From: Bdellovibrionales bacterium
GTDB lineage: Bacteria > Bdellovibrionota > Bdellovibrionia > Bdellovibrionales > UBA1609
Direction: 5' to 3'
Assembly (NCBI GenBank): GCA_007121385.1
Contig: SKLV01000116.1
Span: 1 to 62,429, forward strand
DNA length: 62,429 bases
The position numbers and the translations under genes were made by a program. Each line of letters begins with the position of its first letter. The stretch's first letter is position 1. The notes under the pieces were generated by a model. That model was not told where the DNA came from. It worked only from the letters and a program-made list of their open reading frames with translations, and ran no database searches. This document shows, in pieces, positions 3,287 through 50,687 of the stretch.

Positions 3287-3306
3287 CCTCTTGATGCCCT
3301 CATTGT

Positions 3307-3349
3307 TTAGAAGATGTCTTGCGGCGCAGTAACTACTCTCATCTTCTAA
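3307..3349. repeat. Perfect 10-bp inverted repeat (TTAGAAGATG / CATCTTCTAA) with a 23-nt spacer in the pilD-pilM intergenic region
   Basis: Read directly from the sequence: 3307-3316 and 3340-3349 are exact reverse complements. It lies 21 nt upstream of the pilM start and 28 nt downstream of the pilD stop. Confidence 0.4.
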
Positions 3350-3376
3350 AGATTAAATCGAAGGGGATATCAATTG

Positions 3377-13148: not shown

Positions 13149-13171
13149 CTCAAACGCCCCTTCTCTGACCC

Positions 13172-18996: not shown

Positions 18997-19719
18997 TTAG
19001 AGTCTAAAATTCTCACCCAAATAAAATTGACGCGCCACAGGAGAGTTGGCCACATCTTCTGCAGAGCCTTCTACTTCTATTTTACCTTCTTTTAAAATAT
19101 AAGCCCAGTCACAAATGCCCAAGGTTTCTCGAACATTGTGGTCTGTAATCAAAACTCCTATCCCCCGATTCTTGAGCTCCCGAATAATCCCCTGAATGTC
19201 CCCAACAGCAATGGGATCAATCCCCGCAAAGGGCTCATCAAGAAGTAGAAACTTGGGCTCTCCCGCCAGGGCTCGGGCAATCTCTACCCGGCGCCTCTCA
19301 CCTCCCGACAAAGCATAACCATAGCTGGACCGCACATGCTGCACACGAAAGTCATCCAGCAAAAGGTCCAGCTTCTCCTTGCGCTCAGCTGCCGAATGAC
19401 CATGGGCCTCCAAGGCCACAATGATATTCTCAGCCACCGTCAGGCGGCGAAAAATACTGGCCTCCTGAGGTAGATAGCTCAGGCCCATTCTGGCTCTTTG
19501 ATACATAGGTCTCTGGCCTATGGAAACTCCATCCAGAACAACATCTCCTTGATCAGGAGTGACCAGTCCTACCACCATATAAAAACTAGTGGTTTTTCCC
19601 GCACCATTGGGTCCCAAAAGACCAACAACTTGTCCACTCTCTATGGAGAAAGAGACCGACTTGACCACCTGTCTCTGTTTGAAACTCTTACTAATCCCGT
19701 TCACCTGAAGCTGGCTCAA
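18997..19719 (-). CDS. lptB: LPS export ABC transporter ATP-binding protein LptB
   Basis: [46 protein letters not shown]. Lies upstream of rpoN as in the conserved lptCAB-rpoN-hpf cluster. Confidence 0.95.
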
Positions 19720-20711
19720 TTGACATTCTCCAGACTCTTTTTCTCAACTCGGGCTCGAGCTCTCTCCACTCTCACCTGTCGACCTCCGTCCAAAAAAACA
19801 ATTTTATCTCCACGCAGCTCATCCCGGTCCTGCACCACTCTTGGCTCCCCAGAGAAGACAAACCGCCTCTCTCTCAGATAAGCCCGAGCTTCCTGGGAAG
19901 TCACCCACTTTTCACTGTCACTGGCGCGAACCCCTCCCCGCACGGCAACAACCTGCACCTCTTGGGTGGCCCCATCATACTCAAACTCCGCTCTGTCTCC
20001 AGTCACACGAACCTCATCTAAATTCATTTGCACTCGGCCACGGAAGACTCCTATTCGCTGAAGGCCACTAAAGTCAGCCTCCTCACTGCGAATGTTAAAA
20101 AGCTGCCCCTTTTCCAGTCTTTTAGAGCCTCTGACATCGCCTGTTATTTTGACCAAAGAGGTCTCCAAGTCCGCCACCAGAGACTGCCCAGAAAGAGTTA
20201 GGGCTTCACCAAGGGCGTTGGGGGGTTCACGCATACTCACTGGGGTTGGACTGAACAGACGCCGCTCTGCTGAAGAGTAGCTCACCCTATCAGTGCGATA
20301 TTCATAGCCATTGGCAGAGCGAATCAAAACATCACCCTCCACCCAAATATCCCTGTCTACCACCTCGACAACTCCCACCGCTCCAGTCACGGTGAATTGA
20401 ATTCCTTGGTCAGATACAAATACCGCTTTCACCTGAGCAAGATCCCAACGCTCCTGACTCCTTGTGCTGCGGGCCTCTTCGGCCCAGAGCTCCCACTCCC
20501 TTTGGCCCCCTCGAGCCTCGACCAAATGAATTGAGCGCATCACCTGCTCCACGCCCTCGACAAAGGATTGGCGCAATTCATCCATCGAAGAAGACTCCAA
20601 GGGGCCTTCATGCACATCTCGAGGTCGCAAGACCAAGATCTGTAGGACCAGCAGTACAAACAATAAAGCGACCAAAAAACGGCTCCAAGAGCCCCAAAAA
20701 ACTCGGATCAT
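19716..20711 (-). CDS. Membrane-anchored LptC-like plus LptA/OstA-like two-domain protein (apparent LptC-LptA fusion)
   Basis: 331 aa with an N-terminal TM ([17 protein letters not shown]). Two successive OstA/LptC-style beta-jellyroll segments follow, at roughly residues 55-185 and 190-320. It is the only gene between the divergent promoter region and lptB, with a 4-nt overlap with lptB. Confidence 0.6.
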
Positions 20712-20794
20712 GGAAAGGATTGTAGCACAAAACCAGTAGAGATTTCTGCAAATAGCGACTTTAGAGTTGCCTCTAAACGACCGATAGGTTTCCC

Positions 20795-21505
20795 ATGGAA
20801 AAATGGTTTGTCTGCCAAGGAGAGAATGTTTCAGGTCCCTTTTCCACAGAGGAGGTCAAAGTCCAACTGAAAAATGGGCTGGTCTCCAAGAAGAGCTTAA
20901 TTTGGGGCCGTCTTCACCCCCATTGGCTGCCTGCAAGCCGCTGGGTCAGCCACCTGCAGCAGATCCTTAACCAGGCTCCCCTCTCACAAAATTCTGAAAA
21001 ACAGTGGCACTACGCTCTCAGCGGAGAATCTCACGGCCCATTTGAAAAAGACAAGTTGGTACAGATTCTGAGCTCCCTAGGGCGCGCCCATGAAATTTTG
21101 ATCTGGACCAAGGGCATGAAGAACTGGGCCCCTCTTTTTGAGTTTCCCGAACTCCTTGACGCTATGGGCGTAAATAAAAGAGAATTTCCTCGGGCCTCCC
21201 TCCAGGGCCAGGCTCTGATCGCTGGTGAGCCTCCTCAGACAGGAAAACTGCGCTCCATCAGTGAAGGGGGGTTCTCAGCTTCAGGAGTTTTTCTTATCCC
21301 CGGAGAAGTTTATTCGGTAGAGATTCAAAGCGACCAGCTTAAGACCCCTTTACATGTCAAAGCTCAGGCTCGCTACCGCAGCGAAAGCGGCCATACGGGC
21401 TTTAAGTTCACCAGCCTTCCCCAAGAGGCCAAAACTATTTTAGTTCAGTATTTACGCCAAGTTTTGGCCCAGGAAGAAGAAGACGAAATCACTCAGGCGG
21501 CGTAA
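20795..21505 (+). CDS. GYF_2-GYF_2-PilZ domain protein (putative c-di-GMP receptor)
   Basis: Two GYF_2-like repeats (WFVCQGENVSGPFSTEEV...IWGRLHPHWLPA and WHYALSGESHGPFEKDKL...IWTKGMKNWAPLFEF). The C-terminal PilZ-like segment has KREFPR (RxxxR) and SISEGG, a (D/N)xSxxG variant. Confidence 0.7.
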   Translation: MEKWFVCQGENVSGPFSTEEVKVQLKNGLVSKKSLIWGRLHPHWLPASRWVSHLQQILNQAPLSQNSEKQWHYALSGESHGPFEKDKLVQILSSLGRAHEILIWTKGMKNWAPLFEFPELLDAMGVNKREFPRASLQGQALIAGEPPQTGKLRSISEGGFSASGVFLIPGEVYSVEIQSDQLKTPLHVKAQARYRSESGHTGFKFTSLPQEAKTILVQYLRQVLAQEEEDEITQAA

Positions 21506-22088
21506 AGTCCGGCCGCATGATCACGGCAAAGTTAATCTCCTCAATTCCAGCCTCGGTGGCAGTATACATCACTTTCTTAAGGTTAAGGAAATCCATTTCT
21601 TTGTCAGCCTGAATGGTGATCTTACGGAACTCATCCACCACCCGGCGCGCCGGTTCTCCGTCGCCCCCTCGAGCCTCAGAGAGAGCTTGACGAATCCTCT
21701 CTGGCATAGAGGCCCTCTCCCGCTCTCCCTCCGCAATCAATTCCACAAGACCTTGGCGCAGGGGCTCTATCAGCCAGTCCTCCTGAGCCTTAACCTGGTC
21801 AAAGGAGGCCACAGTGACGTTGTTGAGCATTAAGTTGAGAGGAGAAAGGACAATCACATTGGAGGGCATGAGCTCCTTCACCTCGCGCGCATCAGGCAGT
21901 GCAACTTCCTTAGGAATCACTATAATGTCTCCAGTGGTGGCGTAATTCTGCAACAGGAAAACTACCAACACGGTAAATAAATCCACCATGGCTGTGAGCT
22001 GAAGGACAGCCACAACTTTACGCTTGCTACCATTACCTTTTGAGCGCCCTCTTTTATCGCGTCCCCCGCCGGGAATAAAAATTGGCAT
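21489..22088 (-). CDS. ExbD/TolR-family proton-channel subunit (AglQ/AglS-like), long form
   Basis: 199 aa. Single TM carrying the conserved Asp (LTAMVDLFTVLVVFLL) and a periplasmic ExbD domain. Shares 1 nt (TAATG) with the upstream ExbD gene. Confidence 0.8.
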   Translation of the reverse strand: MPIFIPGGGRDKRGRSKGNGSKRKVVAVLQLTAMVDLFTVLVVFLLQNYATTGDIIVIPKEVALPDAREVKELMPSNVIVLSPLNLMLNNVTVASFDQVKAQEDWLIEPLRQGLVELIAEGERERASMPERIRQALSEARGGDGEPARRVVDEFRKITIQADKEMDFLNLKKVMYTATEAGIEEINFAVIMRPDFTPPE

Positions 22089-22558
22089 TACTCAACTCCT
22101 CCGGTCGCCACAGCAATTTGTGGAAACCCCGCGGCTAAAAGAGCGTCCATTCCCCAAATCAGAGTTTTGTAGGGCAGGGGGTCCTCCACTGTAATCACCG
22201 CATCCACTTTTTCAGGATAAAGCTCCTTCACTCTATTAAGTTCCACCATCAGATTGGGAATATCATACTCTCCATCCACTTTTAAAATACGCTCCACTTG
22301 GCGTCCAATCACCACGCGAAAACCATCAGACCGTACGTCCAAGCGAAAGGAGATGTCCGCCTGTGGGGGTATTTCCACAGGGTCATCATGAGTCCTTTTA
22401 CCGTACATGGAACTACCAATCTGAATCATGGACACTTGAGTCCACACCGCTGTAATGAGGAGAAAGATCACTAGAACGCTCATCAAATCGATGAACGGAA
22501 CAATATTGAGATCCACATTGGTCTGTCGCCCTGAATCCTTCTCCTGAATTTCCGCCAT
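22088..22558 (-). CDS. ExbD/TolR-family proton-channel subunit (AglQ/AglS-like)
   Basis: 156 aa. TM with the conserved Asp (IVPFIDLMSVLVIFLL) and a C-terminal ExbD fold. Confidence 0.85.
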   Translation of the reverse strand: MAEIQEKDSGRQTNVDLNIVPFIDLMSVLVIFLLITAVWTQVSMIQIGSSMYGKRTHDDPVEIPPQADISFRLDVRSDGFRVVIGRQVERILKVDGEYDIPNLMVELNRVKELYPEKVDAVITVEDPLPYKTLIWGMDALLAAGFPQIAVATGGVE

Positions 22559-22587
22559 AACACATCAACCCTTTACCAGCTTTAAAT

Positions 22588-23286
22588 TTAGTCTCTCATC
22601 TTGTCTCGATTGGCCACCACGATATTCATCAAGCTCATACTGCTCTCAAGCATGTCATTGATGGCTCGGCCAATGCGAATTTGAAAAAATCCGTAGGCAA
22701 CAATGGAAATGATCGCCACCAGCAGACCAAAGGCCGTACAGTTCAGGGCTGCCGAAATCCCTCGTGACAGCATGGCGGCTTTGGTGGCGGCGTCTGCCTC
22801 GGCCACACCCGAGAAAGAGACGATCAGACCCATAATTGTACCGAGCAGCCCCACCAGAACCCCTAAGTTACCAAAAATGGCCAGAAAAGAAGTCCATCCC
22901 TCTAGGCGGGGGGACTCTCTCAGAACCGAGGCATCCATCGCCACCTGAACCTCTTCGTCAGGTCTTCGGTTAAGCACTTGGATCAAGCCGGCCTTAAGAG
23001 TGTTGGTCAGTGGAGTCGGGCGACTGTCGCAGAAGGCGATGGCCTGCTTTAAGTCTCCCCGCAAGAGCATCCCGAAGAGGTTCTCACTCACACTGGTCTT
23101 ATCCACTGTCAGCCGCTGCAATGTGAGCAAGCGCTCGACGATCAGAAATAAAGCCATTAATCCTACGGCGGCAATCAGGAACATCACCGGGCCACCATCG
23201 CAAAAGGCTTTGGCTATCCAATTATTATAGCCTGCGCATCTATTCATTATGTCTACTGCTGGACTTATATCTACTGCTGGATCCAA
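22588..23286 (-). CDS. MotA/TolQ/ExbB-family proton channel (AglR-like)
   Basis: 232 aa with 3 TM segments and a conserved C-terminal channel region (GLLGTIMGLI...ALNCTAFGLLVAI). The TTG start at 23286 has GGGAGGG 7 nt upstream. The N-terminus contains an 18-nt tandem duplication encoding PAVDIS/PAVDIM. Confidence 0.85.
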   Translation of the reverse strand: MDPAVDISPAVDIMNRCAGYNNWIAKAFCDGGPVMFLIAAVGLMALFLIVERLLTLQRLTVDKTSVSENLFGMLLRGDLKQAIAFCDSRPTPLTNTLKAGLIQVLNRRPDEEVQVAMDASVLRESPRLEGWTSFLAIFGNLGVLVGLLGTIMGLIVSFSGVAEADAATKAAMLSRGISAALNCTAFGLLVAIISIVAYGFFQIRIGRAINDMLESSMSLMNIVVANRDKMRD

Positions 23287-23300
23287 GGTAATACCCTCCC

Positions 23301-25370
23301 CTAATTATTATTAAAAACAAACGGAAATAAAACTCGGCCAATTTGATCTGGTGGCATTTCTGGGAACCTCCAGGTTCGCAGGAGCCTTAAAACACAATCC
23401 GCCACACTGTTGTTGGCCATAGAGTTACTATTAATGACTGCTCGAATCACTCGACCTCTTTCATCAATATCCCACTCCAAAACCACTCGCCCATAAAGGT
23501 TGGGGTTTCGGTTGAGTTGAGTCTCATAGCAGGACCGAATGGCCGTCCTGTTGGCAATAATCACCCGACGGATGGCCTCACGATCAATGGTGGGAGAAAA
23601 CTCAGCCCCCTGACCCTCAATATTGATATTGACGGAGCCTCGCTCGCCTAGACTCCCTCCTGTCCCAAAGCCAAAGTTGCCAGTCCCACGGCCCTTAGTG
23701 CCCACACCGGCAATACCTTCAGTGGCGGCACCAGTCCCCCCACCAGTCTGGCGAAGTCGTCCACCAATACCTTCTCCTGGGCGACTCTCCGCCTGCCCCG
23801 ATCGCCCGGTGGCCCTATCAGCCAGACCCGTGATCTCTCCACTTCCTGTGGCGGCTCGATCCAGCTTCTGTCGGGTTCCTCCGCCTCCTAAGGCACCAAG
23901 GAGTCCCACCTTTGTCGGATCCGGCCGCTGGGTCTTAGCACTGGCCCCCGCTGTGTCTCCCATCTTTACAGCCCCCCCCTGACGGTGCACACTAGCCGGG
24001 GTGTCTTTAGGAGCTGGTTTAGGAGTGGGCCTCACATCTGAAGCAGTTCCGGGATCTTTGGGCTGAGTGCTCACCTGTTTTCTCTGCTGCTGCTTGGGCT
24101 TTGCCTCCTTAATTTCCACAACCTTTTTCTCCCGTGGAGGCTGCCTCTGCTCTTCGATCTGAACCACTTTGGGCTTTGGCTTAGGCCTAGGAGGCTGGAA
24201 GGTCACAGTGGCCATGCGCAAGGGCTCTTCAATCAGTGATCCATCATCCAGGGGCACAGGCTCATAGATCTTTATGTAGAGTCCTAGAATCAAAGCCACC
24301 AGTACCGCCAATGCCACCCCTGTCAACTCAGAGCTGGTGAGATCAAAGAGGGGTGCCACTAAAGCTTTGGGTGTCTCCGCCGAATAACGGATGTAAAGAG
24401 AAATTTGACCCCCAGACAGATCCACTCTCACCATCTCTCCCTGCGCAAGGTCCAACTCCTGGAAAGTGCCTGCTGATCGCAACCGCCCCGCTTTGGCGGC
24501 CTCGGTCAAGGGAAAGCTTTTGTTAGGTTCGAGCCAGAGCTGTCCACCCATATCGGGAGACAGTCGAATAGTGGCATTGGACTGCAAATCAATAAGAGGG
24601 TGCCCCGCCTTACCGAAACTCATGCCTGGAACAACGATATCCACGTTAGGTCCTGATCCGATAACCAATTGGCCCTTTTCTTTAAAGTGCTGAGTCGATA
24701 GGACTCGATCTTTCCAGGCCACCACCACTTCCAGGAGGGGCCCCTTTTGCGGCTTCAGCACTTCAGAGAGGTCCTTCACCTGGCTGGGCGGAGCGAAAGT
24801 CTTTTCATCCTTTTTCTTAGTACTCCAGGTTTTTGCCGCTAAAGCCACTCCTCCTGTAGTGGAGGCCGTCACTGATGCGGGACTCTCCTTGGCCATGGGG
24901 CTAATGGACACAGGTGGCACTTGAACTTGAGGGACCACCTTCCTTTTTGGCGCAGCCGCAGCCGGAGGCAGAGGTGGAGTTTCAGCCGCGGGTGGTGGGG
25001 CGGCTACGGCAGGAGGGGCCTCCACTTTAGGTGGAGGCGGAGCCTCTGGTCGCGGAGGAGCTGCCGGCTTAGGCACCCCGATAAAAAACTCAATACGATA
25101 AACGCCCAGGCGCAACTCGTCACCTGATTGCAGGGGCTCATCCAAAACTCTTTGTCCCCTCAAAAAAGTCCCACTCTGTGAGCCGAGGTCCGAGACATAG
25201 TAACCGGATTGACGATCCTCGATCACAGCATGAAGAGGCGACACACTCTCATCTTTAAGGTCCAACTGGACCTCGGCGTCCCGTCCGATCACAATTTGCT
25301 CACGGTCAAACTGCTGCACGGACTCAAGCTGATCATTCTTGTAGATACGCAATAAAACTGGTGGTTTCAA
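23301..25370 (-). CDS. FHA-domain, TM, Pro/Lys- and Gly-rich protein with an AgmX/PglI-type TonB-like C-terminal domain (GltG/AgmX-like)
   Basis: 689 aa. N-terminal FHA (IVIGRDAEVQLDLKDESVSPLHAVIE...YYVSDLGSQSGTFLRGQRV), Pro/Ala linker, one TM (LTGVALAVLVALILGLYIKIY), and a PKPKPK linker. The C-terminus reads IRSCYETQLNRNPNLYGRVVLEWDIDERGRV...CVLRLLRTWRFP. Confidence 0.8.
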   Translation of the reverse strand: MKPPVLLRIYKNDQLESVQQFDREQIVIGRDAEVQLDLKDESVSPLHAVIEDRQSGYYVSDLGSQSGTFLRGQRVLDEPLQSGDELRLGVYRIEFFIGVPKPAAPPRPEAPPPPKVEAPPAVAAPPPAAETPPLPPAAAAPKRKVVPQVQVPPVSISPMAKESPASVTASTTGGVALAAKTWSTKKKDEKTFAPPSQVKDLSEVLKPQKGPLLEVVVAWKDRVLSTQHFKEKGQLVIGSGPNVDIVVPGMSFGKAGHPLIDLQSNATIRLSPDMGGQLWLEPNKSFPLTEAAKAGRLRSAGTFQELDLAQGEMVRVDLSGGQISLYIRYSAETPKALVAPLFDLTSSELTGVALAVLVALILGLYIKIYEPVPLDDGSLIEEPLRMATVTFQPPRPKPKPKVVQIEEQRQPPREKKVVEIKEAKPKQQQRKQVSTQPKDPGTASDVRPTPKPAPKDTPASVHRQGGAVKMGDTAGASAKTQRPDPTKVGLLGALGGGGTRQKLDRAATGSGEITGLADRATGRSGQAESRPGEGIGGRLRQTGGGTGAATEGIAGVGTKGRGTGNFGFGTGGSLGERGSVNINIEGQGAEFSPTIDREAIRRVIIANRTAIRSCYETQLNRNPNLYGRVVLEWDIDERGRVIRAVINSNSMANNSVADCVLRLLRTWRFPEMPPDQIGRVLFPFVFNNN

Positions 25371-25639
25371 TCGCCGCTCCTACCTCTTGGAATTTCCTCT
25401 GCAGTCCTTCTCATCTCTGGAACAAAATTCTCTCTTAACTTAATCAACCGCTTGTAATTAAACTGTCTTTGCTGCAGCAAATACATTAACTCCGGCTTGC
25501 TGGCTTCCCCGGTGATCAACTCATCTTCAAAGTCGATGGTCGTTCTTCTTCGACCATCATCTTCCTGGGCTTGAGCTTGCTGAGCTGTCATCAATAAAAC
25601 TCCCGCAACAATTATTATTTTAAACCATTTTCTGGCCAC
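25367..25639 (-). CDS. Small secreted protein of the gliding cluster (GltF position)
   Basis: 90 aa. GTG start with GGAGG 6 nt upstream. Signal peptide (IIIVAGVLLMTAQQAQA). 4-nt overlap with the downstream FHA/TonB-C gene. Confidence 0.6.
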   Translation of the reverse strand: MARKWFKIIIVAGVLLMTAQQAQAQEDDGRRRTTIDFEDELITGEASKPELMYLLQQRQFNYKRLIKLRENFVPEMRRTAEEIPRGRSGD

Positions 25640-25653
25640 CGCAAGCCTCCATT

Positions 25654-28600
25654 TTATCTCAAAGCTCTTTCAAGCTGATCCATACGTCTAAGAATTTGGG
25701 GATCATCAGCAACGAATTTAACTCGACTAATCACACCCCTGGCCTCGTCAAACTCCTGCAACCTCTCCACAAGCAGGATGGCATAGTTGTAGAGAACCGC
25801 AATGTTACGCGCATCGTTGTCTAAAATATCTTTATAGATATCCCTGGCTCGTCGGAACTCTCCCACACCCGTCAGAGCTACGGCAAAGTTGTTGGCAATC
25901 TCAAGAGCCGTCGCTTCTCCCCGTCGCACATTGGCTCTCTGGGAGCGAAAACTTTGCTCTAAAGGAGCGATAGCTCGACTATAGTCCTTATGCTCCAGGT
26001 AAATAGAAGCCAAATTGGTTGCACCAAACAAATAGTCTCGCCCCACATCCAGGCTTCTCCTGAAAGCCGTAATCGCAGCCCTCAAGTTTTTCTCACTCAA
26101 TTCAATGACGCCGAGATTATTATACAGGCCCGGTTGGTTGGGGTGTTTCTCAAGGGCTCGATTCAAAATAATCCGAGCTAACCCTGGTCTTCCCTGCTGA
26201 AAACTAAACATGGCCAGAGAGTTCAGCGCTAAAAGGTGGTCGGGATCTTTAGCCAAAATTCGCGAAGCCGCCTCGACCATCACCTCTTCACTGCGACCCA
26301 TTCGAGCCGAGGCTAAAGCCTCCAATTCGGCTCGAGTGATCTCCTCGCTGATTGCCGAACGAGTGAGGCTGTCCATCCAGTCGATGATCTTGGTGAGAAT
26401 AACCCTTTCCCCCCCATCTCGACTCTCCCCTGGTCGGAGGGTCCTCAGCTCAGAAGAGGCAATAATAGTCCACTGATTGTAAGCCTCCATCCGCGAGGAG
26501 CTTTCCAGGGCGGCGCGAAAATTGGTGACCGCCTCCTCTTGAAAGGGCCTGGCAATCTCTTCGACACCAGCCCGATACTGCTGCAACTCCTCTTCATTTA
26601 GACCTGAGGGAATAGGCGCATTGACGAGGGCTGCTGCCTTGTGCTGAAGAGCCTGACCCAGGACAGTCAAAGCGGCCACCACCATCGGGCCATCATCATA
26701 GGCAATGACAGACCTAAGTTCTTCCTTGAGCTTTTCCAAAAGAGCCAGCTTGCGATTGACCGCCTGAGCTTGCCGGTTGGGATCCCTGGGGATTTCAATT
26801 TTCCGTAGCTCCTCGTAGGTGCCATAGACTTGCTTAAAACGAGCCTCCGCAGCATAAGCTGTTCCCACATTTTCCCCTCGGGAGGCAAGATTTCTCTGAA
26901 TGCGAATGGTTCGAGCGTAGGCATCACTGGCGGCCTTATTGCGACGAAGACGCTCATTGAGTTGGGCAATTTTAAATGAGGACCTCACCATGGCCTCCCC
27001 GTTGGGGGAGTTGCTCTCCATAAACTGATTGTAATGACCCAAGGCCTGGGTGATCCGGCCCTGTCTTTCTTGCAGGGCCCCCATCAGCAAAAGGGCTTCC
27101 CAGCGGTTGGCATCGCGGCTGAGCTCCAGATACCTCTCATAATTTCGCTGGGCTGCTTGAAAGAAGTTCATCCCGTCACGAATAACTGCGGCATTATAGT
27201 AGAAAGCGGGGGCCTCTTGATCTCGGGGATTTCCATTGGCATAGCTCTCAAAGGCATCGGCGGCGCGAGAGTACTGGCCTGTTTTTTCATAGAGGGCTGC
27301 AACAAAGCGACTGGAGTTTCGCCGAAGCCCGGCATGGGCCTCACCAGAAGTCCCCAAAACCGCTGTGTACATGGCGATGGCTTTAACGAGGTTACCCCCT
27401 TTTTCATAATTGAGGGCCGCATTGTAAGCGGCTCTCACACCCAGATCACTATTTGGATTTTTCCTGGCGAACTCTTCAAAGGACTCGGCACTCTTAAGGT
27501 AATCACCCGCTTTTTCTTGTTCCTGCGCCATGGAGAAAGAGGCTTCTTGCATAATTTTTGTAACTTGGGCTCCCACCGGGGAGGCTGCCAATTCAGGAAC
27601 AGCCAGTATTTGTTGGGCCGCCTTTTCAAGTCCGGAAAAATCCTGACGCAGGTTGAAACTGTCCAAAATGAGGTTGGCCGAGAACTCCGCCTGCTCCGAC
27701 TTGGGACTGTCGGCGATCACTTGCTGGAACATGGGGATGGCCTTATCAAATTGATTGTAATAGTAGTAAAGTGTGGCTAGACGATAGCGAATGGGAATAG
27801 TGCTCTCTTTATCTTTGGTGATCTGAAAATAGCGCAAGGAGGCCGCTTCAAAAGCGCGAATGGTGCGATCAAACTCTAAAGGCTGGGTAGTGTCGCCCAC
27901 AATCCTGCGGATCTCCTCCGGAGTGGGTAGTCGCTTTTCCAAAGCCAATATGGCATTGAGAGTGGCTTTCTCCAGATACTCACTGTCTGGGGCATTCTCA
28001 GTGACCCACAAATAACTGGCCGCAGCGGCCTCAAACTCCTCCATTTCAAACATGAGTTCACCAAAGAAGAAGCGCATTTCATGAGTCTTGGGCGTTAACT
28101 TAAAGGTGTCGAAGTACATCCTGTAGCCGCCAGCCGCTCGCCTCTGGACCTCGGGGTTTCGGGTGTTTTGAGCCACCTGATGCTGCTGCAAAATCCAGTT
28201 GCGCAAAGTGGTCTCCATCAGGGCTGCGGACTTGACAATGAGCTCCCGATTGGAAGCATTGGCCCTGGCCCAGACTCCCTCTGGTCCAAAGCGATCCACC
28301 CAATGCCCAAGCTCTTGACGAAAGGCGGGGGTTTCTCCCTGTCCCGCTAAAAGAGTTATAATTTGGTATTGATAATCGAAGGCCTTAGGCGCCGTGGGGC
28401 GCTCTGCAATAAGATCTTTGAAGAGGAAAGTGGCGGCCTCTCTTTGGCCCCGATCGGCGTAGTGATAAGCCAGACGCTCCACCATACCAGAAACTCCCCT
28501 CTGCCCCACGACCGAGGCAAAGTACTGGCGAGCACGACGAAAATCTCCTGTCTCAGCATAAAAGGTGACGAGATCCTTTAAAGCCTCATTGGCCAAACGA

Positions 28601-29589
28601 ATTCGACTGGCCCCCGCCTCCCGATCTCCTGTGCCCTGAGCCGCACGACCAGCTCGGATCACTTGTTCAAGAGAGGAGACAGCATTACGCAACTGACCCA
28701 GTTTAAACTGACACCAAGCTAACTTATACAGAGCAAATGAATAGAGCCGAGACTCTCTTTTAGCGGCGACTTTTTGATAGTGAGTCGCTGCCTCCTGCCA
28801 GCGATTGTTCTCAAAGTAGTACTCCCCAAGGGCAAAATTACTTTCATCAACAAAAGGTGAGCGGGGGAACTCTCGTGACAGACGATTGTAATACTCGAGG
28901 CCCCTATTGATGTTGCCCATCTCAAAATGATTGTAGCCTAAAAAGAAGAGGGCCTGATCCACCTTAGGATCCTGAGGAAAATCTCTTAAAAACCACTCAT
29001 AGAGCTGGACAGCTCGACGGTTATACTCCTGAGCAGGCCGCAGATCCAGTTGGGGCATTCTGCGACTCCCTCTTTCCTGAGCTTCAGCCAGTTGTTTCTG
29101 GTGCTCGTTAAAAAGTCGGGACTGGATCAATCGCGCCTTGTCCACATACATCTCCGCCAGGCGCAGCCAGAGCTCTCCTCGCCGCGGGCTATTGCGAAAT
29201 TGCTGAGTGAGCTGGAAGAGCTGCTGAATTCCCTGATCGGTGATTTTTTCGAGCTCCGCCTCGTCAGTTCCCGGCTCAAAATAGAGAGCCTGCCGAGCGG
29301 GCGGCTGCACTTGACGCAGGTCCCGACGCTCCTGGCGAGCTGGCAGCTGTTGGGCTTGAGGCAATTCACTGCGCCCCCTTTTAAGCTGAGTGTCTTGGGC
29401 TTTTCTCTCAATCTCTCTGAGTAAGTCACTGACCGTTCTTTGCTGGCCGGCACTGCGATTGGGGGCAGCTCCCCGGCCCTGCTGACCCCAGAGGGTCTCA
29501 CTTAAAACAAAAGAGGCCCCAACAGCCACAGACAGGGCTATTGAGTGTATAGCTAAATTTTTAATTCGCTTCCTATTCCCTTCAGTCAC
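25654..29589 (-). CDS. Very large periplasmic TPR-repeat protein (GltD/AgmU-like)
   Basis: 1311 aa with an N-terminal signal/anchor, then TPR-like helical repeats throughout (many A/Y/L-spaced 34-residue units, e.g. ALFFLGYNHFEMGNINRGLEYYNRLSREFP). Confidence 0.85.
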   Translation of the reverse strand: MTEGNRKRIKNLAIHSIALSVAVGASFVLSETLWGQQGRGAAPNRSAGQQRTVSDLLREIERKAQDTQLKRGRSELPQAQQLPARQERRDLRQVQPPARQALYFEPGTDEAELEKITDQGIQQLFQLTQQFRNSPRRGELWLRLAEMYVDKARLIQSRLFNEHQKQLAEAQERGSRRMPQLDLRPAQEYNRRAVQLYEWFLRDFPQDPKVDQALFFLGYNHFEMGNINRGLEYYNRLSREFPRSPFVDESNFALGEYYFENNRWQEAATHYQKVAAKRESRLYSFALYKLAWCQFKLGQLRNAVSSLEQVIRAGRAAQGTGDREAGASRIRLANEALKDLVTFYAETGDFRRARQYFASVVGQRGVSGMVERLAYHYADRGQREAATFLFKDLIAERPTAPKAFDYQYQIITLLAGQGETPAFRQELGHWVDRFGPEGVWARANASNRELIVKSAALMETTLRNWILQQHQVAQNTRNPEVQRRAAGGYRMYFDTFKLTPKTHEMRFFFGELMFEMEEFEAAAASYLWVTENAPDSEYLEKATLNAILALEKRLPTPEEIRRIVGDTTQPLEFDRTIRAFEAASLRYFQITKDKESTIPIRYRLATLYYYYNQFDKAIPMFQQVIADSPKSEQAEFSANLILDSFNLRQDFSGLEKAAQQILAVPELAASPVGAQVTKIMQEASFSMAQEQEKAGDYLKSAESFEEFARKNPNSDLGVRAAYNAALNYEKGGNLVKAIAMYTAVLGTSGEAHAGLRRNSSRFVAALYEKTGQYSRAADAFESYANGNPRDQEAPAFYYNAAVIRDGMNFFQAAQRNYERYLELSRDANRWEALLLMGALQERQGRITQALGHYNQFMESNSPNGEAMVRSSFKIAQLNERLRRNKAASDAYARTIRIQRNLASRGENVGTAYAAEARFKQVYGTYEELRKIEIPRDPNRQAQAVNRKLALLEKLKEELRSVIAYDDGPMVVAALTVLGQALQHKAAALVNAPIPSGLNEEELQQYRAGVEEIARPFQEEAVTNFRAALESSSRMEAYNQWTIIASSELRTLRPGESRDGGERVILTKIIDWMDSLTRSAISEEITRAELEALASARMGRSEEVMVEAASRILAKDPDHLLALNSLAMFSFQQGRPGLARIILNRALEKHPNQPGLYNNLGVIELSEKNLRAAITAFRRSLDVGRDYLFGATNLASIYLEHKDYSRAIAPLEQSFRSQRANVRRGEATALEIANNFAVALTGVGEFRRARDIYKDILDNDARNIAVLYNYAILLVERLQEFDEARGVISRVKFVADDPQILRRMDQLERALR

Positions 29590-31195
29590 AGCTCTGGGTT
29601 CCTACATAGTGATAGTTGCCAATTTCATCCAACCAGTACTCACCACGGAAAGGCCAGTACTCAAATCCATTTTGAATATAGTAGTCCCGGCGGGTTCCCT
29701 CATCGACTTGAGTCTGCGGTAGATCCCGGCCAGCAATTCGTTTTTGTAGGGCCTGCTTTTTGCCATTGATCATTTCAAAGCGAATAAAACCCTCTTGCTC
29801 GAACAGATCAAAAAGCTCAAGGCGAATGCTCTCCAAATGGGCTCGAATCTGACGGCCAGCCCTCTCCCGGGCTCTAGCAATACGGGTCTGTAAAACTCTC
29901 TGAGCATACTGACCCACTGCGGATTGGCGCCACTCGGCAGGCATCTCCACCACTCGTCTAGTTTCCTCCAAAAGGCGAGAGATATAGTTGTAAGAGGTCT
30001 GGAAGTCGCCCTCTTTCATGATCCTTCGTCCGACCAAAAAGGGAATGAGATAGCGGGTCTCCTCAGTGGATCCATCATTGAGCTTTTGATCCCGAATCAT
30101 TCTCACCATCTCATTAAAATAGACCACGGGATCGTTGGTGGAATTCAAGGCCTGATCAATTTGTCGATAGACCGGTCGATAAATTTGATTAAACAGGTTT
30201 AAAACTTTTTCCATTTCATCGTATTTACAAATGTAGAGATAGACGATAGAGCGCAACAGTAGTGACTCAGGAATAAAAAAGTCTTCGTAATAAGAGGAGT
30301 GCAGCGAATGAAAGTTACTTAGAGCACTTCGGAATCGCCCAGACCTGAGCATGGCCCAACTGGACTCAAAGAGGGTGTCGTGCCAAGCCTCGGTGTCCCT
30401 GGGCACCTGGCGATAGACATCGAGAGCCCGATCCCAATTGCGCTGCTGATAGTAGACCCGGGCCATGCCCATCAATGCGGAAACTCTTGCGGAGTCTGTT
30501 GGCCCAAAGGCCCTGCGGCTGTCGAAGAGATCCTCAAAGGCACGCAGAGCCCGGGGAAGCTGGTTGGCCTGAGTCAATGCCAGCCCCTCCATGTACTTGG
30601 CTTTGGGAAAAAGTCCACTGGCCCTCTGGACTCGAGAAAAACTTCTGGCGGCCTCAGGAAATTGATTATTTCTCAACTGAAACTCACCAATTCGATAATT
30701 GAGCATATCTCGATGAATACGCGGAAAATCATCCACTCTCACGCGTCCCAAAGCGTAGTTAAGAAGAGTGTCATCACCGAGGTTGTCCGCCGCCAGAGAC
30801 AGCTTCTCCAAAGCCTGACGGAGGTACTGGGACTCACCTTGCCGAACCACACTGATAAACTGAAAGGCGGCCACCTGATTGAGATTCATTTCAAAAAGAG
30901 TCAAGCCTAAGATATAGCGAATTTGAGTGCGACGATTGCGAAAGCGAGGACTGTAGCTCAGCTGAAAGAGACTCATGGAGGCCTCAACATAATTTCCACT
31001 TCGCGCCATTTGAAGGGCTTGAACAAGAGGATTGTTGCCATCTGGGGCTGCAGCCCCTGCTCTGGCTGGAGCCCCAGGCCGACTGGGAGCCTGGGCGACC
31101 AAGAGCTCTTCAGCCCCACTGGAATTAGGGGCCGCCAGCCCTCCTATGAGAAGAACTGAGAGTAAAGTTGTCATTCTGAGCTTTCTTCTGATCAT
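29582..31195 (-). CDS. Periplasmic TPR-repeat protein (GltC/GltE-like)
   Basis: 537 aa with a signal peptide (LLSVLLIGGLAAPNSSGA) and TPR-like repeats in the N-terminal two thirds. Overlaps both neighbours, by 4 nt and 8 nt. Confidence 0.8.
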   Translation of the reverse strand: MIRRKLRMTTLLSVLLIGGLAAPNSSGAEELLVAQAPSRPGAPARAGAAAPDGNNPLVQALQMARSGNYVEASMSLFQLSYSPRFRNRRTQIRYILGLTLFEMNLNQVAAFQFISVVRQGESQYLRQALEKLSLAADNLGDDTLLNYALGRVRVDDFPRIHRDMLNYRIGEFQLRNNQFPEAARSFSRVQRASGLFPKAKYMEGLALTQANQLPRALRAFEDLFDSRRAFGPTDSARVSALMGMARVYYQQRNWDRALDVYRQVPRDTEAWHDTLFESSWAMLRSGRFRSALSNFHSLHSSYYEDFFIPESLLLRSIVYLYICKYDEMEKVLNLFNQIYRPVYRQIDQALNSTNDPVVYFNEMVRMIRDQKLNDGSTEETRYLIPFLVGRRIMKEGDFQTSYNYISRLLEETRRVVEMPAEWRQSAVGQYAQRVLQTRIARARERAGRQIRAHLESIRLELFDLFEQEGFIRFEMINGKKQALQKRIAGRDLPQTQVDEGTRRDYYIQNGFEYWPFRGEYWLDEIGNYHYVGTQSCD

Positions 31196-32028
31196 CGGTA
31201 AGTGGCCTCCGGAAAAAAGAAACTCAGGCCAAAGGCCAAGAGCAGATCATCCTGATTCACTCGACGCTGTTCACTCCCCACATCACTTGTGGATTGATAA
31301 AAGTTCCAATTGAGATCCCAGCGCAGCGCTAGAAATTTAGTGAGGGCAAAGACTTGGCCTGTGGACAGATGAACAGTGGGTTCAGAGCTGCCCGCCTCGG
31401 TCTTAGTGAGCCCCAGTCCAAAAGCGAAGTTAAAGTCAAAGGGTACAATGCGCTGATTGAGCCAGGTGATTTTCCCATAAATGGGGTTCCAGCGAAAAGC
31501 CGCCCCAGTGAAATTCTTAGCCGTCACCAGAGAGGCCGTGCTGATGTTAAGGGGATCTGAAGCCAGGTCTTTGGTAACAGCTCGCTGAGTGTTGGCCAGA
31601 AGCATATGAATGAATTCCACCCCATAGCGCTCCTGAAAGTAGTAGGAGGCCCGGGCGGCAAAACCGATACTATTGAAAAAGGGGTTGTTCAGTCCGGTGG
31701 CGCCAGAGGCGGTGAGTTCAAAGCGCTGAGTTTTGGGCAAAAATCGGCGCTGAATCACAGCGATATCCTCAAAGGGAGCCAAATCAGACAGCTCAGCCAA
31801 GCCAGGAACCTGGGTGCTTAGCCTCTGCCGGTCCTGGCGCAGACGCCTTTCCACTTGCTGCTGCTCGCGACGATCAAAATCCTCATAGAGGCCCTCGATT
31901 TCAGATTCTAAAGGCGAGGGCTGTGCCCCTCGGCGCTGGGGCTCCACATCGTCAAACTGGGCTTGAGCTCCTAGAGCTGCCAGAAGCATGGATATCAATA
32001 CTAAATGTCTTCCCGCTGTCCAATTCAT
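31192..32028 (-). CDS. Outer-membrane beta-barrel protein (GltA/GltB family-like), paralogue 2
   Basis: 278 aa. Signal peptide ending AQAQ, a charged linker, then alternating beta-strand pattern. Shares the motif PIYGKITW with the upstream paralogue (LFYGKISL). Confidence 0.7.
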   Translation of the reverse strand: MNWTAGRHLVLISMLLAALGAQAQFDDVEPQRRGAQPSPLESEIEGLYEDFDRREQQQVERRLRQDRQRLSTQVPGLAELSDLAPFEDIAVIQRRFLPKTQRFELTASGATGLNNPFFNSIGFAARASYYFQERYGVEFIHMLLANTQRAVTKDLASDPLNISTASLVTAKNFTGAAFRWNPIYGKITWLNQRIVPFDFNFAFGLGLTKTEAGSSEPTVHLSTGQVFALTKFLALRWDLNWNFYQSTSDVGSEQRRVNQDDLLLAFGLSFFFPEATYR

Positions 32029-32129
32029 TGCTGACTCATCGTTGGCTGAAGTTTATTTAAACTTTATCCTACTGCAAAGTTTCCCTAATTCCATTTTGTT
32101 AAGTCCCACCACCTCAGAAACTGGACCGT

Positions 32130-32903
32130 CTAGAGTAGATAAACCAGACCAAAGTTAATGAGAGTGTTAAAGTAAAGGTCCTCGCCAAAAGTAGAGGGGT
32201 CTGGAGCTGGACCACTGGGATTGAGAACCTGGGTGGTGGGATCAGGACCTCGATAGCTGAACAGACGAATATCAAACTTGAAGGCCAAGTCCGGAGTGAT
32301 AAAGATATTTTGCCCCACAGCTGCATGGGCCGCCAACTTGCTTCCAGCTCCCCGGCTAAGTCCCACAGCCCCAAAACCCGCCAGTCCGTAAATAGACAAA
32401 TTCATCACCAGCTGTTTGCTCAAGCTGATCTTACCGTAAAAGAGAGAGGCCTGATAGTTCAGGGTGGTCAACCCTTCAACCTGAGGGGCCAGAGAGGGAT
32501 CAAAGGGAGCGGGACTGCCACCCGGACCTCCAATGCTCAGTTGCTCACCATAAGTGGAAAGCCCGCCCAGCCACTGAGTGTGAGACAGCTGAAGCCCATG
32601 CACTTCCGAAAGATGATAGGCCCCATGGAGGGCAAAGTGACTGGGACCATAAAAGGGCTCATTTAAAGATAGGCCTCCACTGAGGCCCACTTCAAAGCGG
32701 CCCGTCTTTGTGACGAGGCGATTGCGAACACTCACTGAGTTGTCAAAAACCGGCAGCACTGTCTCCGCCGCCAGCTCATCGACAGAGAACTCAATCACAC
32801 TGGCCTGGAGGACACTTGAACTCAGCAAGAGTCCTGCCAGCAGGGCCGGGAATGTGATTTTAAAAATTAAACTTGAATAGAAAAATTGAAAAACAGCCGC
32901 CAC
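32130..32903 (-). CDS. Outer-membrane beta-barrel protein (GltA/GltB family-like), paralogue 1
   Basis: 257 aa. GTG start preceded by GGGAGGGGAG. Signal peptide (LLAGLLLSSSVLQA) and amphipathic beta-strand pattern. First gene of the cluster. Confidence 0.7.
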   Translation of the reverse strand: MAAVFQFFYSSLIFKITFPALLAGLLLSSSVLQASVIEFSVDELAAETVLPVFDNSVSVRNRLVTKTGRFEVGLSGGLSLNEPFYGPSHFALHGAYHLSEVHGLQLSHTQWLGGLSTYGEQLSIGGPGGSPAPFDPSLAPQVEGLTTLNYQASLFYGKISLSKQLVMNLSIYGLAGFGAVGLSRGAGSKLAAHAAVGQNIFITPDLAFKFDIRLFSYRGPDPTTQVLNPSGPAPDPSTFGEDLYFNTLINFGLVYLL

Positions 32904-32987
32904 AGCTCCCCTCCCTAGTTGCTGGACCTCTAAGAACTTAATTCAAAGGATAATGGAAGCTTATGGGCTTGACTAGGGAAAGGACAA

Positions 32988-33008
32988 AGCCCGACCTAAG
33001 GTCGGGCT
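32988..33008 (-). terminator. Rho-independent-type terminator hairpin after pyrG
   Basis: AGCCCGACC-TAA-GGTCGGGCT is a perfect 9-bp GC-rich stem 23 nt downstream of the pyrG stop. On the minus strand it is followed by TTGTCCTTTCCC, which is T-rich but not a clean U-run. Confidence 0.6.
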
Positions 33009-33030
33009 CTCTATGAATCAAGGTGGAATT

Positions 33031-34776
33031 TTACTTAAGCCCTCTTAAACCTTGAGTCTTCCCCTCTCTGCCCATGGAAGCACGTGCGGCCAAACTGGCA
33101 GCGACAAAAGTTTGAAAGAGAGGGTGAGGGGACATGGGCTTTGATTTGAATTCAGGGTGAAATTGCACCCCCACAAACCAAGGGTGCTCAGTGATCTCCA
33201 GAATTTCCACCAGATCTCTCTCCTCGCATACTCCAGACAAAGTCATGCCATGTTTTTCAAAAATGGGTTTAAACTTGTTGTTGAACTCGTAGCGGTGACG
33301 ATGTCGCTCTAGAATCATGGGTTTAGCGTAGATCTCTCGGGCCCGGCTGCCCTTGAGCAGATGGCAGGGGTAGGCTCCCAGCCGCATGGTCCCCCCCTTG
33401 TCCTTGATGCCTCTTTGCTCTTCCATAAAATCAATGACCAGGTTTCTGGCCCCCGGCCTGGGCTCAGAAAACTCCCGACTAGTGGCATCCTTAATTCCAC
33501 AGACATTGCGGGCGAATTCAATGGCTGCCAGCTGCATACCAAAACAGATGCCAAAGTAAGGGACTAAGTTCTCGCGGGCATAGCGAATAGCCAGCATCTT
33601 GCCCTCAGCCCCACGCACCCCAAAGCCTCCCGGCACAAGAATTCCATCTACAGCCCCCAACTGGGACTCCAAATTCTCGGAATTGAGCTTCTCTGAATCA
33701 ATGTAGACAATATTGACCTTAGTCCGGTTGGCAATGCCCCCATGAATTAGGGCCTCATTGAGAGATTTGTAACTCTCTTTAAGGTCCACATACTTGCCAA
33801 CAAGGCCAATTGAGACTTCACTCTCAGGATTTTTCAAAGTGTGCACCATTTGGGACCAGCCCTCAGTGGCCGGCTCAAGTGTCTGTAGTCCCAATCGATC
33901 CACCACTTTTTGATCCAAGCCCTCGCGGTGCAGAACCAAGGGGACCTCATAAATGCTCTGAGAGTCCGTGGCCGCAATCACATACTCCGGGCGAACACTG
34001 CAAAACAAACCAATTTTGGATTTCAAGTCTCGGGTGATTTCCTTTTCACTGCGACAAATCAGAAAGTCAGGCTGGATTCCCACCTCTCTCAACTCTTTGA
34101 CCGAGTGCTGAGTGGGTTTACTCTTCAGCTCACCGGCTGCGGCGATGTAGGGCACATAGGTGACATGGATAAAGATAGAGTTCTCTAGCCCCACATCCAC
34201 TCGCATCTGTCGAATGGCTTCAATAAAGGGCAGCCCCTCAATATCTCCCACGGTGCCGCCAATCTCCACAATGGTGACTTCAGCCCCCTGAGCGGCTTCA
34301 TAGATGCTGGATTTGATCTGATCTGTGATATGGGGGATGACCTGAACAGTTCCCCCTAAGTAATCTCCCCGCCGCTCTTTGGCGATCACTGTTTCATAGA
34401 TCTGTCCTGCAGTGATGCTGTTGGACCGGTTCACACTGACTTGAGTGAAGCGCTCGTAGTGACCTAAGTCCAAATCGGTTTCCGCTCCATCCTCGGTCAC
34501 ATAGACCTCTCCATGCTGAAGAGGGGACATGGTTCCTGGATCCACATTGATATAGGGGTCACACTTCATCAAGCTGACTTTAAGTCCTCGTGACTCTAAA
34601 AGAGTCCCTAAGCTGGCGGCCGAAAGCCCCTTGCCGATAGAGGAAACCACTCCTCCAGTGACAAAAATATATTTCGGGATAAGCGCTTTGTTAGTGGAAC
34701 GGATAGGGGAAGATTTTTTTTTGGTCCCCCGCTTTGGCCCAGTGGTCTTGGTTTTGGCTTTAGATTTGGCTTTCAT
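33031..34776 (-). CDS. pyrG: CTP synthase, with an unusual Lys-rich ~35-aa N-terminal extension
   Basis: 581 aa. [17 protein letters not shown]-loop region and GATase domain GICFGMQL...VQFHPEF. There is no in-frame ATG/GTG/TTG between the annotated ATG and the conserved KYIFVTGG. Confidence 0.97.
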
Positions 34777-34786
34777 CTTGTCTTTT

Positions 34787-35521
34787 TTACCTCTGTTTTT
34801 GCATCAACCGCTCAACTTTTTCCACATCTTCAGGCCTGTCAACACCCAAGGAATCAAGCTCTGTCAAAACCACCCGGATTCGCCCCCCCAACCAAAGGGC
34901 CCTGAGCTGCTCTAAGCTCTCCCCCCTCTCAATAGGGACAGGAGGCTGGGCACAAAATGTCTTAAGAAAGTCTTTGCGAAAGGCGTAGACCCCAATGTGC
35001 TTAAAACAAGCCTCTGGCCAATCGGCAAAACTCTGCCGAGAATAGGGAATGGGATAACGGCTAAAATAAATGGCCTCAGACTTTTGGTTCACCAGCACTT
35101 TAACCACATCCCGGCTCTCCAATTCGTCGGCCTGAAGAGGCCTCGCCAAGGTGGCCATAGGGAGGTCTCTGTCCGACAAAAAGGGCTCCACCAACTGATC
35201 CAAAGCCCAGCCCTGAAACAGGGGCTCATCCCCCTGGACATTGACCACCACATCAAAGTCCCTCTGGGCCACAGCCGCCCACACCCGATCACTGCCACTG
35301 GCCAAGTTGGAGTCCGTCATCACTGCCTCCACGGCAAGACTCTCGGCCAGCGCAAAAATCTCTGGATGATCTGTGGCCACGATCAGGGAGCTCATTGATT
35401 GACTCCCCTTAAGGCCTTCAACCACCCACTGCAGAAGAGGGCGACCTAAAATGGGAGCCAGAGGCTTGCCGGGAAAGCGAGTGGAAGCATAGCGGCTGGG
35501 TATAACGGCCACCACCTTCAT
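34787..35521 (-). CDS. kdsB: 3-deoxy-manno-octulosonate cytidylyltransferase (CMP-KDO synthetase)
   Basis: [22 protein letters not shown]-terminus, typical of KdsB. I use the ATG at 35521, which forms an ATGA overlap with the engB stop. The track start at 35548 would overlap engB by 31 nt. Confidence 0.93.
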
Positions 35522-50623: not shown

Positions 50624-50687
50624 CCAAAATCCGGCTCCTGATCAAGTCTCCTGCCCAGCCTCGATCAAACCTGTTAGTCTATTTCTT

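Follow-up and report, generated by a model that had tools for sequence, protein, structure and literature searches.

We analysed contig SKLV01000116.1 (forward strand, positions 1-62,429) from the genome assembly GCA_007121385.1 of a Bdellovibrionales bacterium (UBA1609), and this stretch of 62,429 nt is hereafter called the window. In the open reading frame (ORF) map of the window, nine minus-strand ORFs, g1 to g9, fill 21489-32903 and probably encode an Agl/Glt-type trans-envelope machine (Table 1), the apparatus known from Myxococcus xanthus. Each ORF listed in an earlier note on this DNA was found exactly at the coordinates and on the strand given there. The note had counted ten genes, a figure which has to be lowered to nine ORFs because gltD and gltE form a single reading frame here; the parts list for this reason equals that of the ten genes in Bdellovibrio. 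The four overlapping junctions reported earlier are all present in the sequence: an ATGA overlap at 31192-31195 (g2/g3), an 8-nt overlap, GTGACTGA, at 29582-29589 (g3/g4), a 4-nt overlap, TTGA, at 25367-25370 (g5/g6), and a TAATG junction at 22088 (g8/g9). The remaining intergenic gaps are 14, 14, 29 and 101 nt long, the last separating g1 from g2 (32029-32129). Upstream lies pyrG (838 bits against the CTP synthase equivalog), the intrinsic terminator of which, proposed earlier as the upstream bound of the cluster, proved to be a real hairpin. As four junctions overlap and no gap exceeds 101 nt, the nine genes are most simply regarded as a putative single transcription unit that begins downstream of this terminator. 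Two plus-strand ORFs lying inside g4 and g3 (27034-27780 and 30380-30910, respectively) were treated as antisense artefacts of the long minus-strand genes.

Table 1. Features of the Agl/Glt-type cluster and its borders in the window
Feature	Coordinates	Strand	Description
pyrG terminator	32986-33010	-	Intrinsic terminator hairpin, upstream cluster boundary; stem of 11 bp, -19.6 kcal/mol (z = -2.9 relative to shuffled sequence), then UUUGUCCUUU (U-rich tract)
g1	32130-32903	-	257 aa; GltA-type outer-membrane beta-barrel with N-terminal signal peptide; Bd0828 counterpart
g2	31192-32028	-	278 aa; GltB-type outer-membrane beta-barrel; Bd0829 counterpart, paralogue of g1
g3	29582-31195	-	537 aa; GltC-type periplasmic TPR connector with signal peptide; Bd0831 counterpart
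g4, whole	25654-29589	-	1311 aa; GltD-GltE fusion, TPR
g4, residues 1-1072	26374-29589	-	GltD (AgmU)-type long TPR 'pillar'; Bd0832 counterpart
g4, residues 1073-1091	26317-26373	-	Fusion linker, from the junction alignment
g4, C-terminal GltE module	25654-26316	-	Match to NF033758 and identity to the separate Bdellovibrio GltE
g5	25367-25639	-	90 aa; GltF/CglF-type small secreted protein
g6	23301-25370	-	689 aa; GltG-type force transducer; Bd0834 counterpart
g7	22588-23286	-	232 aa; AglR-type proton-channel subunit of the TolQ/ExbB/MotA family, three transmembrane helices; Bd0836 counterpart
g8	22088-22558	-	156 aa; AglQ-type subunit of the TolR/ExbD family, transmembrane Asp D24; Bd0837 counterpart
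g9	21489-22088	-	199 aa; AglS-type subunit of the TolR/ExbD family, transmembrane Asp D36; Bd0838 counterpart
GYF-GYF-PilZ gene	20795-21505	+	236 aa, cytoplasmic; convergent with g9, 17-bp 3' overlap; possible accessory (uncertain)

Family calls were made by profile searches against Pfam and NCBIfam, in which the cut-offs for the M. xanthus equivalogs were those of NCBI, and these searches bore out the Agl/Glt family call of the earlier note. Both putative barrels exceed the cut-off (60 bits) of TIGR04565 OMP_myx_plus, g1 with 68.7 bits and g2 with 88.8 bits, as is characteristic of the GltA/GltB barrel pair of the Agl/Glt machinery. The YGKI motif, which had been described as common to the two proteins, is indeed found at residue 156 of g1 and residue 184 of g2. 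The two barrels cross-match at 22-26% identity, and g1 is 34-37% identical to the product of the first gene in the Bdellovibrio clusters. The g3 protein bears TPR matches in Pfam and aligns to profile positions 122-619 of 622 in NF033756 gliding_GltC (E = 3.2e-62; 211 bits against an equivalog cut-off of 450). Many TPR families were matched by g4, of which residues 1100-1277 match NF033758 gliding_GltE (52 bits, E = 4.5e-14; cut-off 225). No GltD profile match was returned for g4 by the Pfam and NCBIfam search; the rest of the protein was assigned to GltD because g4 is orthologous to Bd0832 of B. bacteriovorus, which Luciano et al. assigned to MXAN_4870. The small g5 protein, with a signal peptide ending in ...AQQAQA before QE, matches NF033764 gliding_CglF (E = 8.9e-12; 44.9 bits, cut-off 90), and a 90-aa orthologue with the same profile match occupies the same place in Bdellovibrio sp. 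L003. Signal peptides were found on all periplasmic and outer-membrane parts.

The g6 protein has the topology expected of GltG. Residues 1-688 align to positions 1-647 of the 650 in NF033760 gliding_GltG (E = 2.8e-83; 280.6 bits, equivalog cut-off 650). An N-terminal FHA domain (63.5 bits; residues 1-97, 25080-25370) is followed by a Pro/Ala-rich cytoplasmic linker and a single transmembrane helix at residues ~350-370 (about 24261-24323). On the periplasmic side, a Pro/Lys-rich and then a Gly-rich linker lead to a TonB-C-like tail (residues 595-689, 23304-23588), which scores 97.6 bits against the AgmX/PglI-type profile NF033768 myxo_SS_tail (cut-off 40) and 24.2 bits against tonB_Cterm, the latter being under the cut-off of 27.1. 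The last three genes correspond to a motor. While g7 matches PF01618 (MotA_ExbB) with 91.2 bits, PF02472 (ExbD) is matched by both g8 (55.8 bits) and g9 (44.7 bits; transmembrane segment LTAMVDLFTVLVVFLL). The conserved transmembrane Asp attributed to both ExbD-like proteins is present as D24 and D36, respectively, and 'PFIDLM' in g8 aligns with 'PFIDVM' in ExbD, which holds D25. In comparison with the solved ExbB/TolQ structures, T150 and T184 of g7 align with the channel Thr pair of ExbB, T148 and T181. Thus, the cluster carries one TolQ-like AglR and two distinct TolR-like subunits, each with its transmembrane Asp. The three genes were assigned to MXAN_6862, MXAN_6861 and MXAN_6860 via their orthologues Bd0836-0838 in Table S3 of Luciano et al.

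A search with GltG over one genome per species led to a Bdellovibrionales metagenome-assembled genome (MAG; L001) and to genomes of Bdellovibrio spp. The L001 GltG is 70% identical to g6, and amino acid identity to L001 ranges from 62 to 90% across the cluster and the flanking genes; identity to the Bdellovibrio clusters is about 34-66%. By tblastn-based synteny and the ORF map of L003, the same gene order, continuing into lptC/A-lptB-rpoN, was recovered from L001 as well as five Bdellovibrio genomes (L003-L007). As both the order and the lptC/A-lptB-rpoN flank are identical in L001 and the five Bdellovibrio loci, the cluster is a conserved unit. The order A-B-C-D-E-F-G-R-Q-S on one strand, directly upstream of lptC/A-lptB-rpoN, is that of Bd0828-0838 in B. 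bacteriovorus HD100, where Bd0838 is AglS (PMC6561027) and Bd0843 is rpoN. In Table S3 of Luciano et al. (PMC3169522), the proteins of Bd0828-0838 are given as GltA/B/C/D/E/G and AglR/Q/S, with assignments such as Bd0829 to MXAN_2539 (266 aa; Bd0828 has 240 aa), Bd0832 to MXAN_4870 (1066 aa), Bd0837 to MXAN_6861 (158 aa) and Bd0838 to MXAN_6860 (196 aa). The protein sizes are near-identical, being 240, 266, 529, 1066, 281, 707, 221, 158 and 196 aa in that table, to be matched with 257, 278, 537, 1311, (90), 689, 232, 156 and 199 aa in the window. Judged from sequence and gene order, the locus is the positional orthologue of the Bd0828-0838 'expanded core complex', with the GltA-like, GltB-like, GltC, GltD, GltE, (GltF), GltG, AglR, AglQ and AglS parts in the same succession. 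Unlike HD100, the window encodes GltD and GltE as a single polypeptide, from which the signal peptide and lipobox of GltE have been lost, and it carries, between aglS and lptC/A, a GYF-GYF-PilZ gene in convergent orientation.

The earlier note had seen the novelty of the cluster in its compact, all-in-one layout and in its missing parts, both of which were already published for Bd0828-0838 in 2011. Luciano et al. (2011, PLoS Genet; PMC3169522) described four 'expanded core complex' sets in B. bacteriovorus, with glt genes in linkage to aglRQS; the same four operons were listed by Lambert et al. (2010). Among the four, it is Bd0828-0838 whose motor genes come nearest to the motility aglRQS; this set lacks gltH, gltI, gltJ and gltK and was considered the best candidate for the gliding apparatus (PMC3169522). 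The annotation of the window as a Bd0828-0838-type cluster in a new Bdellovibrionales lineage is therefore routine, albeit of some value for the experimental assignment of the motor for gliding and prey contact in Bdellovibrio. What is new here is only the GltD-GltE fusion and the convergent GYF-GYF-PilZ gene, both modest but testable.

We consider it likely, with a probability of about 0.8, that the region encodes one complete Agl/Glt-type proton-driven trans-envelope machine, orthologous to Bd0828-0838. The way in which the machine may work can be drawn up from the M. xanthus system and the solved 5:2 motors of TolQR and ExbBD. AglR (g7) would form a proton-conducting stator ring round the TolR-like g8 and g9, the transmembrane Asp residues of which would take up protons. 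The motor would then act on GltG (g6) at its single transmembrane helix, an interaction between AglR and GltG having been shown in M. xanthus (Luciano et al. 2011, PMC3169522). The Pro/Gly-rich linker of GltG would cross the peptidoglycan, so that its TonB-C-like tail could dock on the GltD(-E) pillar (g4), and GltF (g5) and GltC (g3) would bridge this pillar to the GltA/B barrels (g1 and g2) in the outer membrane. By this route, proton-motive force would give rise to movement or force on the surface of the cell, and the likely output is slow gliding on surfaces and/or those steps of predation that involve surface contact. The predicted force path, from AglR5QS through GltG and GltD/E/F/C to GltA/B, is the same as that in M. 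xanthus, for which a published AlphaFold model of the complex has the chain GltG-GltD-GltE/F/C-GltAB. Ten core component types are homologous between the two systems. The M. xanthus genes are distributed over three loci (gltD-J in G1, gltK-B-A-C in G2 and aglRQS in M1), whereas those in the window form one. GltD is reported to be a lipoprotein in M. xanthus ('Cys1'), whereas the protein here carries a non-lipoprotein signal peptide and has GltE fused to it.

Several points weigh against this reading. All of the M. xanthus equivalog profiles that were matched were matched under their cut-offs, so that GltC, GltE, CglF and GltG are, as far as their scores tell, clear but distant homologues and not equivalogs. 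The position of E176 in ExbB is occupied by Ala in g7, and the single transcript is deduced from gene packing. GltH, GltI, GltJ, GltK, CglB, AglZ and MglA/B, which M. xanthus has and in which they are essential or central, gave no match in scans that covered, with Pfam and/or NCBIfam, all ORFs of at least 150 aa and the small ORFs in gaps of the 62-kb window, as distinct from the whole genome. The earlier statement that GltH/I/J/K, MglA/B and AglZ are missing thus holds for the window, and in lacking gltH, gltI, gltJ and gltK the cluster, within this scope, again resembles HD100. The sole trace of any of these components was a weak match (26.6 bits) of the GYF-GYF-PilZ protein to the GYF region of GltJ. 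As to the biological output, a review of 2026 states that the gliding machinery of Bdellovibrio 'remains unidentified' (PMC13104615), and the genes reported to be induced on surfaces during gliding of HD100 are bd1480 and bd3099, the former of which falls in the range Bd1473-1483, named as another cluster. Finally, Bdellovibrio has four paralogous sets, and such sets can have non-motility roles in M. xanthus, e.g., Nfs (PMC3169522).

The superfamilies to which g7-g9 belong (MotA/TolQ/ExbB and ExbD/TolR), the TonB-C-like tail of GltG and the match of g4 to the YbgF/CpoB TPR profile could also be explained by an ordinary Tol-Pal or TonB/ExbBD system for envelope maintenance or uptake, to which extra TPR proteins have been added. 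The TolQRA and ExbBD-TonB 5:2 proton motors (PDB 5sv0, 6tyi and 8odt) indeed share the stator family with the cluster, which keeps their channel Thr pair and the transmembrane Asp of TolR/ExbD, and their transducers likewise have a TonB-like C-terminal domain. Nevertheless, g7 reached only 73 bits against the TolQ equivalog (cut-off 221) and 52 bits against that of ExbB (cut-off 206), and the ExbD-like proteins missed their cut-offs as well, with 35 bits for TolR (cut-off 127) and at most 24 bits for ExbD (cut-offs 123-216). No profile match to TolA, TolB or Pal and no TonB-dependent receptor was found in the cluster; the partners of the motor are TPR proteins and Glt barrels instead. In contrast to the Tol and Ton motors, the cluster has two distinct TolR-like subunits in the manner of AglQ/AglS, and its transducer has a cytoplasmic FHA domain. 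The best matches are to gliding-specific profiles, namely GltG, GltC, CglF, OMP_myx_plus and the AgmX/PglI tail. The cluster thus belongs neither to Tol-Pal nor to the TonB-ExbB-ExbD uptake systems, and this explanation, which the earlier note had put forward as a test of its own call, is already refuted at the level of profiles and in our judgement highly improbable. A different objection concerns the operon, since the barrels, or g1 alone, might be transcribed apart from the remaining genes by means of the 101-nt gap between g1 and g2 or of internal promoters. That gap is the only sizeable one, and the corresponding genes of M. xanthus do lie in three separate loci. Nevertheless, the g1-g2 gap is 13 nt in Bdellovibrio sp. 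L003, which implies no conserved intergenic element, and every other junction in the window either overlaps or spans no more than 29 nt. In a scan of 20500-33500 for sigma-70 promoters and terminators, the counts equalled the shuffled expectation. Separate transcripts are therefore unlikely, and we retain the single transcription unit.

Whether the machine serves gliding is a separate matter. The label of a gliding machine in the earlier note can be kept as far as the Agl/Glt family is concerned, which the profiles support, while gliding itself is drawn from analogy; we regard gliding proper as the main output with slightly better than even confidence. The main rival is the same machine in the form of a specialised paralogue, which would act in prey attachment or invasion or would move or organise a surface polymer or adhesin, gliding being driven by another set. 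A transposon mutant of Bd0838 (aglS) lost prey attachment, killing and rounding; no other phenotype has been recorded directly for the orthologous cluster (PMC6561027). Bd0828-0838 is up-regulated in host-independent growth and not at 30 min of predation, and the surface-induced genes mentioned above, one of which falls within another cluster's range, point in the same direction. Moreover, there is no redundancy among duplicated sets, which can assume non-motility functions (Luciano et al., PMC3169522), as illustrated by Agl-Nfs, which acts on the spore coat in M. xanthus. On the other hand, the motor genes of Bd0828-0838 are those closest to the motility aglRQS and its Glt complement is the fullest among the sets (PMC3169522), and the attachment defects may result from the loss of gliding or of surface scouting. 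We therefore treat a specialisation for predation contact as possible but the less probable of the two, and keep gliding as the favoured output of the Agl/Glt-type machine.

The fusion of GltD and GltE sets the cluster apart from those of Bdellovibrio proper. In Bdellovibrio spp. (L002-L007), GltD (~1085 aa, ending in ...NWMGQ) and GltE (~291 aa) are encoded by separate, overlapping genes in different frames, and GltE starts with a classical lipoprotein signal (MKK..LFIAAC, with the lipobox ...FIAAC). The window differs from this Bd0828-0838-type arrangement in having a single ORF for 1311 aa, as does L001 (1303 aa). Residues 41-1072 of g4 are 38-41% identical to the separate Bdellovibrio GltD, and its GltE module is 29-35% identical to the separate lipoprotein. 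At the junction, ...IDWM is followed by a linker of ~20 residues, DSLTRSAISEEITRAELEAL, which runs directly into the TPR module of GltE; the counterparts in the alignment are the end of the Bdellovibrio GltD, ...VNWMGQ and stop, and the GltE sequence MKKILLITVLFIAAC.... The linker thus replaces the stop/start overlap, the signal peptide, the lipobox Cys and the acidic tether of the separate GltE. The fusion is not a sequencing artefact, as it occurs in two independent assemblies which are only 77% identical. In the 120 top-ranking homologue clusters, the fused form (1195-1340 aa) is represented 94 times and the unfused one 26 times, and fusion is a common state in uncultured Bdellovibrionales. 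Both states occur at the rpoN-linked position, where L010 and L011 are unfused, and they are interleaved in a rough neighbour-joining tree of the GltD portion, a crude method applied to a sample with paralogous clusters mixed in.

[quoted passage not shown] The modelled junction (~residues 1052-1085, which overlap the linker) is non-helical, and the lowest 10-residue block has a pLDDT of 79. The high pTM is consistent with a defined position of the GltE module on GltD's C-terminal domain, and the fusion agrees with the published AlphaFold-predicted contact of GltE to the GltD C-terminus in M. xanthus. It would thereby lend support at the sequence level to one contact in the structural model built for the focal-adhesion complex of M. 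xanthus.

The second new element, the convergent GYF-GYF-PilZ gene, encodes a protein matching GYF_2 in two stretches (69.8 bits) and PilZ (27.4 bits). Twenty-five homologues were found, most of which are metagenome proteins, and the sole taxon name among them is Bdellovibrionales (one MAG entry). The RxxxR motif (R129 and R133) and [S/T]xSEGG are invariant in 10 of 10 aligned homologues, so that this protein may plausibly bind a cyclic dinucleotide. In the window as in five other loci (L001, L009, L010, L011 and L012), its gene is flanked by lptC/A on one side and the agl genes on the other; in L008 it adjoins lptC with no glt cluster beside it, and Bdellovibrio spp. do not have it at this place. 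Such linkage is compatible with a role in the machine, albeit no proof of it. We also looked at the Pro-rich cytoplasmic linker of GltG ('GVPKP...') for co-occurrence and obtained no signal, as the linker is present with or without an adjacent GYF-PilZ gene. Gliding of B. bacteriovorus is under cyclic-dinucleotide control via Bd0367 (PMC9140294), and Bd0836 is among the candidate cyclic di-GMP (c-di-GMP) binders required for predation in a transposon-sequencing screen (PMC6561027). It is attractive to speculate that the GYF-GYF-PilZ protein could take the place of the GYF module of GltJ, a component missing here, and that it could pass a c-di-GMP or 3',3'-cGAMP signal to the machine via a Pro-rich cytoplasmic partner, e.g., the GltG linker. 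The protein would then be a candidate route from cyclic dinucleotides to the machine in lineages without GltI, GltJ and AglZ. The combined proposal, that GltE is covalently attached and free of a lipid anchor in much of the uncultured Bdellovibrionales and that the GYF-PilZ protein is a soluble stand-in for GltJ-GYF, is tentative, and we consider it less likely than not. If it is true, the fusion is a natural 'Rosetta stone' giving independent support to the AlphaFold-predicted GltE-GltD contact, and the membrane tethering of GltE is dispensable.

The surroundings of the cluster bear on its origin. In E. coli, the conserved order is kdsC-lptC-lptA-lptB-rpoN-hpf. In Bdellovibrio sp. L003, the cluster begins 3 nt after kdsC (1233-1790 of L003) and ends just before lptC/A; as it thus lies between two genes adjacent in the E. 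coli order, it looks like an insertion at the kdsC-lptC junction. The upstream neighbour in the window is pyrG instead of kdsC, with kdsB and pyrG at 33031-35548, and hpf follows rpoN. The lptC/A gene of the window (19716-20711, minus strand) encodes a 331-aa protein in which residues 13-196 form an LptC domain and residues 201-319 an LptA/LptD_N domain, an apparent LptC-LptA fusion. It is followed by lptB, rpoN and hpf, and the same architecture is annotated in L008, L010 and L011.

The proximity of rpoN and of a gene for an enhancer-binding protein prompted a search for sigma-54 promoters. The only match with a single mismatch near the operon, TGGCAGGACTCTTGCT (32839-32824, minus strand; a near-consensus -24/-12 motif, TGGCAG-N5-TTGCT), falls in the codons of the g1 signal peptide (LAGLLL), and it was judged to be a chance match on account of this location and of the count over the window, 27 against 34 in shuffled sequence. 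No Rfam match at the gathering score for a riboswitch or leader RNA (e.g., a cyclic-dinucleotide riboswitch) and no tRNA was found in the whole window. The sigma-54 enhancer-binding protein (461 aa, plus strand) is encoded convergently with a protein of 313 aa bearing a FliL domain at its C-terminus and a long extension at its N-terminus (36244-38551).

Other genes in the window include those for an extracytoplasmic function (ECF) sigma factor (192 aa) and an adjoining FHA-GGDEF diguanylate cyclase (310 aa) at 52585-54375 (minus strand). We take this pair to resemble Bd0743 and DgcB (Bd0742) of B. bacteriovorus, which control prey invasion. A second GGDEF protein is encoded at 56761-58083. At the left end, a type IV pilus block (335-4207, minus strand) comprises pilM, pilN, pilO, pilP and a prepilin peptidase gene, and a T2SSE-family ATPase (PF00437; 44997-46118, minus strand) may represent PilT or PilB; on account of the pilus block and this ATPase, the window holds parts of a second system for surface motility and attachment. 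A TonB_2 C-terminal-domain protein (273 aa), followed by a small outer-membrane beta-barrel (199 aa), is encoded at 49802-51287 (plus strand) and is unlinked to the Agl/Glt cluster. Directly downstream of lepA, three tandem paralogues of signal peptidase I (S26) of 202, 249 and 250 aa occupy 11804-13924 on the minus strand.

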